A stretch of DNA of 62,034 bases, filler included, from Deltaproteobacteria bacterium (lineage in GTDB: Bacteria > JAUYMQ01): the NCBI GenBank assembly GCA_030698575.1. It is 11 parts of 11 records of this genome, joined end to end, with 100 filler letters (N's around TTAATTAATTAA, not from the genome) between each part and the next. Parts side by side here need not be neighbours in the genome. Positions count along the whole stretch, not along the records: positions 36,456 to 44,942 come from JAUYMQ010000590.1; 10 more parts are not named here. One strand, 5' to 3'. Every line of letters begins with the position of its first letter. Position 1 is the stretch's first letter. Of this stretch, positions 44,522 to 44,605 are shown piece by piece. Under the pieces are notes generated by a model. It saw only the letters and a program-made list of their open reading frames with translations. It was not told the origin of the DNA and searched no databases. A program made the translations under genes and the position numbers.

Positions 44522-44605
44522 GCGGGTGTGGCGGAACTGGTAGACGCAGCACACCCACAATGTGCGGGGCGGGAGCCCGTGGGAGTTCGAGTCTCCCCTC
44601 CCGCA
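44522..44605 (+). tRNA. Atypical tRNA: tRNA-Leu-type body with CAC (Val) anticodon and C33
   Basis: Acceptor GCGGGUG/CUCCCGC (one U-U), A73; Leu-type D region GCGGAACUGGUAGACGC; anticodon stem GCACA/UGUGC with loop CCCACAA; variable arm GGGC-GGGA-GCCC; T arm GGGAG-UUCGAGU-CUCCC; CCA not encoded. Confidence 0.8.

Follow-up and report, generated by a model that had tools for sequence, protein, structure and literature searches.

In type I toxin-antitoxin modules such as hok/sok, fold-back keeps the toxin precursor inactive until it is processed, and a small antisense RNA neutralises it. C4 of P1/P7 and the CI RNA of P4 are tRNA-like RNAs with complements nearby, which regulate downstream genes. 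Type VIII toxin-antitoxin systems are RNA-RNA pairs by definition (PMC11869752), and no tRNA is among their known toxins. Induction of Ser-inserting allo-tRNAs with Leu anticodons is reported to have arrested and killed E. coli (PMC5389517), and a 2026 preprint reports tRNA-tRNA sequestration in the same species, in a different arrangement (10.64898/2026.09.02.748885). The word antisense is absent from the main texts, supplements aside, of the reports on allo-tRNAs and on tRNA-ProX (PMC5389517, PMC7609411, PMC11415595), and the open full-text literature, i.e. outside subscription journals and supplements, yielded no paper on a tRNA toxin with an antisense antitoxin.

Here we describe a tRNA gene that is one half of an undescribed cassette of about 270 nt without any protein gene. 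In order, the cassette consists of a 5' leader, a tRNA with a leucine-type body, a sigma70-like promoter and, last, a predicted RNA some 72 nt long. We read it, with a probability of roughly 0.7, as an all-RNA toxin-antitoxin system in which a missense tRNA would act as the toxin and an anti-anticodon RNA as the antitoxin. The sequence-only reading of this DNA had proposed a potential Val-to-Leu missense tRNA, and had overlooked three elements, namely the leader, the antisense RNA and the promoter that lies downstream of the tRNA.

The tRNA gene and its flanking elements

The window, that is, the whole stretch of 62,034 nucleotides analysed, joins 11 parts of the genome of a Deltaproteobacteria bacterium (GCA_030698575.1). 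The cassette lies on the contig at 36456-44942, together with acyl-CoA and amino-acid dehydrogenase genes, glyA, a NACHT-SNaCT13 gene and an IS200-like transposase. The relevant features are as follows.

41446-43248: NACHT-SNaCT13 gene (Pfam), context, downstream of glyA
43764..44159, + strand: IS200-like Y1 transposase (Pfam), context, outside the cassette
44417..44446, + strand: weak and uncertain sigma70-like promoter candidate for the tRNA precursor; family signal weak
44454..44521, + strand: conserved 5' leader, imperfectly complementary to the D and anticodon arms of the tRNA; its predicted role is to trap the precursor as it is made
44522..44605, + strand: Leu-body tRNA, predicted toxin; anticodon CAC at 44556-44558, C33 at 44555, no encoded CCA
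44615..44644, + strand: sigma70-like promoter (TTGACT, 18 nt, CATACT), predicted to serve the antisense RNA
44650..44665, + strand: predicted antisense RNA, 5' seed; its 16 nt are exactly complementary to 44549-44564 in the anticodon arm
44667..44688, + strand: short hairpin of the predicted antisense RNA (fold), its arms also complementary to the tRNA D arm
44691..44723, + strand: terminator-like hairpin with a 13-bp perfect stem (inverted repeat I20) and, in the CAC copy, a short U tract

The NACHT-SNaCT13 gene is likely a defence gene. REP-like palindromic repeats of several families flank the transposase (43368-44778) and occur also on other contigs of the genome. The contig ends in a degenerate 21-nt tandem array (44836-44940) and holds an exact 20-nt tandem duplication (44217-44256). 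Elsewhere in the window there are a 6S RNA gene at 16439-16620 on the minus strand (RF00013, 62.3 bits) and, on the next contig, a helicase-like ORF (46134-48896) with apparent intein-like and endonuclease insertions, as judged from translation only.

The cloverleaf at 44522-44605 is complete, and all the traits listed by the sequence-only reading, namely the Leu-type features, C33, the U6-U67 mismatch and the lack of CCA, were found in the sequence. The acceptor stem has 7 bp including the mismatch, the D-loop carries A14, A15, G18, G19 and A20a, the anticodon loop is CCCACAA, and a 15-nt variable arm with a GGGA tetraloop is followed by U48, a normal T arm and A73. ARAGORN names the gene tRNA-Val(cac). 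An Rfam scan of the region matched it to RF00005 (46.7 bits, E 8e-9), and the whole-window gathering scan did not list it; its unconstrained minimum free energy fold differs from the cloverleaf (z -2.06). The combination of a Leu body with a non-Leu anticodon was upheld by blastn against the same genome, which returned Leu-type tRNA bodies only (71-73%) and no tRNA-Val. Besides it, this genome contains five ordinary tRNA-Leu genes and one ordinary tRNA-Val(CAC); the CAC Leu-body tRNA is therefore an extra gene, not a sign of code reassignment. One DNA run contains 44338-44871 without differences, possibly being the source sample and hence not independent.

E. coli LeuRS uses A73, A15-U48, G18G19 and A20a and ignores the anticodon (PMC9976931). 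All these elements, together with G18:U55, G19-C56 and U54:A58, are present in the CAC copy, whose anticodon is not a Leu anticodon. The same paper gives A35, C36 and A73 as determinants for ValRS, with G20, G45, G3-C70 and U4-A69 as minor ones (PMC9976931). Of these, the CAC copy has A35, C36, A73 and G3-C70 and lacks G20 and U4-A69, and its variable arm is 15 nt long. Because A35, C36 and A73 are ValRS determinants, the Val-to-Leu reading of this copy is the least secure of the missense cases; the copy could be valylated and harmless, and its C33 probably damps decoding. GUG makes up 2.99% of codons in the source genome.

Downstream of the tRNA, the site at 44615-44644 is the sole promoter-like one in 44150-44945, where shuffled sequences give 0.1. 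The predicted RNA would start at about 44651, and its seed, which is also inverted repeat I5, forms a duplex of -26.3 kcal/mol with its own anticodon arm (z -6.1 against 117 other downstream regions), compared with merely -9.9 kcal/mol for the antisense and the arm of the host tRNA-Val(CAC). A 12-nt complement of the anticodon arm has no other occurrence in the genome. Cofolding of the antisense and the tRNA extends the pairing into the D arm and the acceptor stem, and the fold of 44645-44730 is more stable than expected (z -6.0). The terminator scan made no call at 44691-44723 because the U run is short, and Rfam holds no family for the predicted small RNA and gave no C4 match. Six RNA runs shared just 0.04 of words; the three that were compared gave short partial matches to repeats or tRNA arms and left the locus uncovered. 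A reading of the small RNA as a guide to an mRNA was rejected.

The leader, of about 68 nt, is conserved and complementary to the 5' half of the tRNA. In the CAC copy the leader:tRNA duplex has a z of -4.2 and the leader fold-back lies 14 kcal/mol below the cloverleaf. Across the family, the duplex reaches z < -2 in 79/108 members against 1/32 ordinary tRNA-Leu genes, and the anti-anticodon tract of the leader tracks the anticodon loosely, surpassing leaders of other anticodons in 68/88 cases. Equilibrium fold-back is family-wide no better than with shuffled leaders (-3.6 versus -3.5), and alifold recovered no consensus leader structure. Leader lengths differ by single bases, so that no reading frame is kept, and a peptide-toxin reading was rejected. 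An upstream promoter scoring at least 8/12 occurs in 12/108 members against 3/108 shuffled sequences, the best -10 boxes ending mostly 70-87 nt 5' of the tRNA; at 44417-44446 the promoter tool made no call. Three of 111 members with short upstream DNA were left out of the leader fold, leader duplex and tree analyses.

A second cassette of the same layout occurs in this genome (G000:C376:3831-3918, minus strand; locus L086), with the Glu anticodon CUC, C33 and an antisense carrying an 11-nt complement of its own, different arm. The surrounding island holds an AAA ATPase gene and, by translations only, WYL-like, DUF2779-like and metallo-beta-lactamase-fold genes.

Distribution of the family and covariation with the antisense

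The occurrence of such cassettes was analysed in three surveys. In survey (a), genome contigs were scanned for C33 Leu bodies blind to the downstream sequence, which gave 118 loci; with the two copies of the source genome these make 120, of which 118 were scored and two left out for having too little downstream DNA. Thirty-four of the 118 pair with their own downstream region at z <= -3.1, all with non-Leu anticodons, compared with none of 66 Leu-anticodon loci; 18 other non-Leu calls, 11 of them Pro, are also unpaired. In survey (b), metagenomes were searched with a pattern for the D arm and the small-RNA hairpin that left the anticodon arm free, and 121 loci of an estimated 410 were recovered. 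Three of the 121, family-like by eye, were lost to the T-loop parser, and 111 were unique after removal of these failures and of duplicates. All 79 non-Leu anticodons among them pair at -16.7 kcal/mol or better, and all 32 Leu anticodons at -13.9 kcal/mol or weaker. The antisense is thus found with none of the 98 Leu-anticodon controls of surveys (a) and (b).

Survey (c), which overlaps survey (a), looked for Leu bodies carrying Y36-A37, with neither position 33 nor the antisense taken into account, and found matches in 25/401 genomes in the phylum of G041, with up to eight copies per genome. The cognate antisense is in place at 51 of 56 loci from 27 genomes, and in each of the five loci outside this rule the tRNA is broken: three have a T-loop insert of about 70 nt with the antisense further on (drifted in one), in one the 3' half is gone, and in one the variable arm and the T stem are damaged and the antisense is missing. 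None of the 56 loci of this survey combines an intact tRNA with a lack of antisense. T-loop changes despite an intact antisense occur in L338, L363 and L380. In L332, L367 and L368 (G042), the same T-loop position is broken by related inserts of about 70 nt with a short closing stem; these may be intron-like elements or small mobile repeats.

The pooled relatives amount to 111 distinct members, and those with names are nearly all Gemmatimonadota. The two other genomes of the source organism's phylum gave no match, and a DNA search of 41 genomes gave, outside the own locus, just weak tRNA-region matches. On viral contigs, a downstream complement longer than 8 nt was seen in 0/64 C33 Leu-like loci, and a narrower pattern gave one locus, on a contig already among the earlier matches. 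Locus L104, on a 2-kb contig of a Gammaproteobacteria bin, is nearly identical to L200 from Gemmatimonadaceae, suggesting misbinning or transfer. Eleven C33 Leu-body tRNAs from several phyla have a Pro anticodon (TGG) and no detectable antisense (L092, L098, L101, L128, L155, L156, L160, L161, L178, L183, L199), and therefore a mismatched anticodon can persist without antisense; they are possibly another family, and several lie directly 3' of a hairpin. Also, L100, L180, the viral L023 and L024 and their relatives, on Mesorhizobium and phage contigs, have Leu-like D arms, C33, an Asn anticodon (GTT) and G73, with no antisense seen.

A different layout was found in Phycisphaerae, the class of G444, where 4/301 genomes gave five matches. 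In four of these (L382, L384, L385, L387; Asp and Glu anticodons), a promoter-like site lies downstream of the tRNA, a stretch of 14-18 nt is exactly complementary to the 3' anticodon strand and variable arm, and the loop of the terminator can pair with the anticodon loop at 7, 6, 7 and 5 of its 7 bases. In the fifth match the tRNA is broken. This layout is not given by simple inverted duplication.

In all 111 pooled members the antisense pairs with tRNA positions 33-37 (G.U counted). Pairing is Watson-Crick throughout at positions 34, 35 and 37, in 109 members at position 33 (plus 2 G.U) and in 106 at position 36 (plus 5 G.U), and falls to 33/111 at position 41; the members are related, and the register was chosen for maximal pairing over positions 27-38, so these figures are somewhat inflated. 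Over positions 28-37, 1110 cells hold 42 G.U against 2 A.C, and the 76 distinct combinations hold 35 against 2. RNA pairing on this strand would produce such an excess of G.U, and a neutral inverted repeat in DNA would not. On a tree of 108 members, built with the arm and its complements excluded, 48 anticodon changes are required (at minimum 9, support values being rough), and all tips are matched. In genomes with several copies, cognate pairs average -23.2 (41 pairs) against -11.9 for non-cognate ones (128 pairs), with one non-cognate cross-match at -27; antisense/tRNA pairs within a genome are mostly orthogonal. An internal promoter scoring at least 8/12 is found in 94/111 members against 4/111 shuffled sequences, and in 87/111 the end of its -10 box precedes the partner of tRNA position 38 by 8-9 nt.

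The tRNAs themselves are well kept. The sequence-only reading had named stem-breaking decay in homologues as evidence against it and had left room for a pseudogene; stems are free of mismatches in 75/111 members and have one mismatch in 31/111, with compensatory changes, and the pseudogene option fails family-wide. A73 is kept in 108/111, U48 in 110/111 and C2-G71 in 108/111, while D-loop bases were fixed by the search patterns and T-loop bases by the parser. The acceptor/T-stem is a canonical 7/5 in the CAC copy and in the 35 family members compared. U33 is found in 58/77 and C33 in 19/77 metagenome members, C33 being therefore a subset trait, and CCA is encoded in 0/111. The Val anticodon seen in this copy turned out to be incidental, as the family reads codons for Ala (48), Val (23), Glu (19), Asp (14) and Thr (7), with one further Gly-anticodon member in survey (c). 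These are mostly among the commonest codons of a GC-rich genome, GAG, GCG and GCC ranking 1-3 in the source genome. G3.U70 occurs in 1/111 members; those with Ala anticodons lack it and are cleaner missense candidates.

No conserved protein partner was found, the largest shared protein cluster covering 11/69 loci, and neither mobile nor defence genes are strictly linked to the cassette. Among the neighbours are genes for kinases and transporters as well as WYL, DUF2779, Uma2, SNF2, HNH and transposase genes (144/182 neighbour ORFs scanned, 78 with a Pfam match). At 31/41 loci the first Pfam-positive gene downstream lies on the opposite strand. At L147/L328, a divergent cassette sits between RtcB and Ro60/TROVE genes, in RNA-repair-like surroundings.

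Proposed mechanism and rival explanations

In the proposed mechanism, a weak upstream promoter would yield a precursor misfolded by its leader and, on read-through, by the antisense tract in cis, and slow 5' and 3' processing with CCA addition would give the mature tRNA, a delayed activation modelled on that of hok/sok. From the stronger internal promoter, antisense RNA would be made in excess, seed on loop positions 32-38 and invade the 5' anticodon strand and the D arm. Upon loss of the cassette or a stop in transcription, the small RNA would decay first, and the tRNA, charged by LeuRS, would place Leu at abundant non-Leu codons (here GUG), leading to growth arrest. Such toxicity fits the survey, since an intact tRNA minus its antisense occurs at 0/56 loci. 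We further consider it probable, if a little less so than the toxin-antitoxin assignment itself, that the cassette represents a new, RNA-only class of selfish module, in which the tRNA would insert Leu at Ala, Val, Asp, Glu or Thr codons and a dedicated anti-anticodon RNA would be the antitoxin. The anticodon arm would also encode specificity, so that as many as eight copies, mostly orthogonal, could share a genome, and the module would exist in two designs, one in Gemmatimonadota and one in Phycisphaerae.

The tRNA could instead be a mimic without mistranslating activity, which would do harm or signal by another route, such as sequestering LeuRS, EF-Tu or ribosomes, or it could be valylated in the CAC copy, with the antisense still in control. 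The C33 of a quarter of the metagenome members (19/77), the lack of encoded CCA and the ValRS determinants of the CAC copy would suit such a role, and many allo-tRNA(UAU) species are reported to be inactive in translation, yet two variants killed cells (PMC5389517). We regard this as unlikely, as the anticodons are restricted to sense codons, mostly very common ones, and the 7-nt loop, the stems and, in 58/77 metagenome members, U33 are kept with no obvious need in a non-decoding RNA. Less likely again is a conditional mistranslation switch that benefits the host under stress or phage attack, or a decoy for anticodon nucleases, in place of an addiction module. Some copies do adjoin WYL, DUF2779, Uma2, SNF2, HNH or NACHT genes, one lies between RtcB and Ro60/TROVE, and natural families of mistranslating tRNA-ProX exist, with a role described as unknown (PMC11415595). 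The cassettes, however, look selfish in their patchy spread (25/401), multiple copies, fast switching of specificity, varied neighbours and repeated inactivation. As for the decoy, which the sequence-only reading had raised, no support was found, and one masked at its anticodon could not act as such.

Complements on both sides of a tRNA-like RNA recall seqA and seqC of P4, and the tRNA-shaped RNA could by this analogy be an antisense regulator of the CI/C4 kind, with the flanking complements as targets controlling a downstream gene. This is improbable: a promoter of its own precedes the downstream complement, behind which comes a terminator-like hairpin and no ORF, the next Pfam-positive gene is mostly on the opposite strand (31/41 loci), and both the uniqueness of the 12-nt arm complement in the genome and the lack of a C4 match in Rfam argue against it. 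An attenuator was rejected in view of the same hairpin and gene orientation. Least credible of all is a decaying tRNA-Leu pseudogene or integration remnant, in which a neutral inverted duplication would be kept matched by template switching. Both the antisense and the leader appear to descend from the 5' half of the tRNA, copied in inverted orientation, and template switching could speed co-changes, yet the covariation pattern largely refutes neutrality: the bias to G.U over A.C (42 versus 2) is strand-specific, and pairing is strictest at the loop and gone beyond position 40. Moreover, the promoter is conserved with a variable spacer, the tRNA stems are intact, and in Phycisphaerae the anticodon complement lies in the terminator loop, apart from the variable-arm complement. 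An attachment-site remnant was rejected as well, such remnants being direct repeats of the 3' end and the complement here an inverted 5' half.

Significance and comparison with known systems

If the toxin-antitoxin reading holds, the toxin of an addiction module can be a tRNA itself, and cells produce antisense RNAs directed specifically at a tRNA anticodon; searches of the open full-text literature turned up neither. This would also offer a testable reason for the persistence of missense tRNAs in bacteria, a question open for allo-tRNAs and tRNA-ProX, and would make available more than 100 tRNA/anti-tRNA pairs from nature, each about 270 nt in size and mostly orthogonal, with which mistranslation could be switched in a controlled way or the genetic code engineered. 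It would also call for caution with annotations, in which such genes appear as ordinary tRNA-Val, Ala, Asp or Glu.

The predicted logic is like that of hok/sok, from which the cassette differs in that its toxin is not a peptide. In contrast to C4 and CI RNA, the cassette tRNA retains its full tRNA identity along with an anticodon loop of 7 nt, and there is no target gene behind it. Among RNA-only systems, the cassette shares with type VIII modules (SdsR with its antisense RNA, CreTA) that both partners are RNA, without a protein partner, and that the antitoxin is predicted to act on the toxin RNA (PMC11869752, PMC8501985); with transcription of both RNAs predicted, it would be expected from its sequence to work like a type VIII module. 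It departs from them in having as toxin a tRNA predicted to miscode, and as antitoxin a separate same-strand downstream gene instead of an overlapping opposite-strand transcript. In CreTA, CreT sequesters tRNA and CreA needs CRISPR-Cas (PMC8501985), whereas the cassette has no conserved Cas or other protein.

With allo-tRNAs it shares a natural mismatch of identity and anticodon and a diversity of anticodons, and allo-tRNAs are toxic in E. coli and found near toxin-antitoxin genes (PMC5389517, PMC7609411). They have, however, an 8/4 or 9/3 acceptor branch and Ser or Ala identity, and the cassette tRNAs a canonical 7/5 branch and Leu identity. The tRNA-ProX and ProRSx of Streptomyces likewise offer dual-identity missense tRNAs with varied anticodons and sometimes a base other than U33 (PMC11415595). 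In these the identity is Pro, a dedicated synthetase gene is present and no antisense is described in the main text (PMC11415595), while the cassette has no conserved protein partner and pairs its Leu-body tRNA with a predicted antisense RNA of its own.
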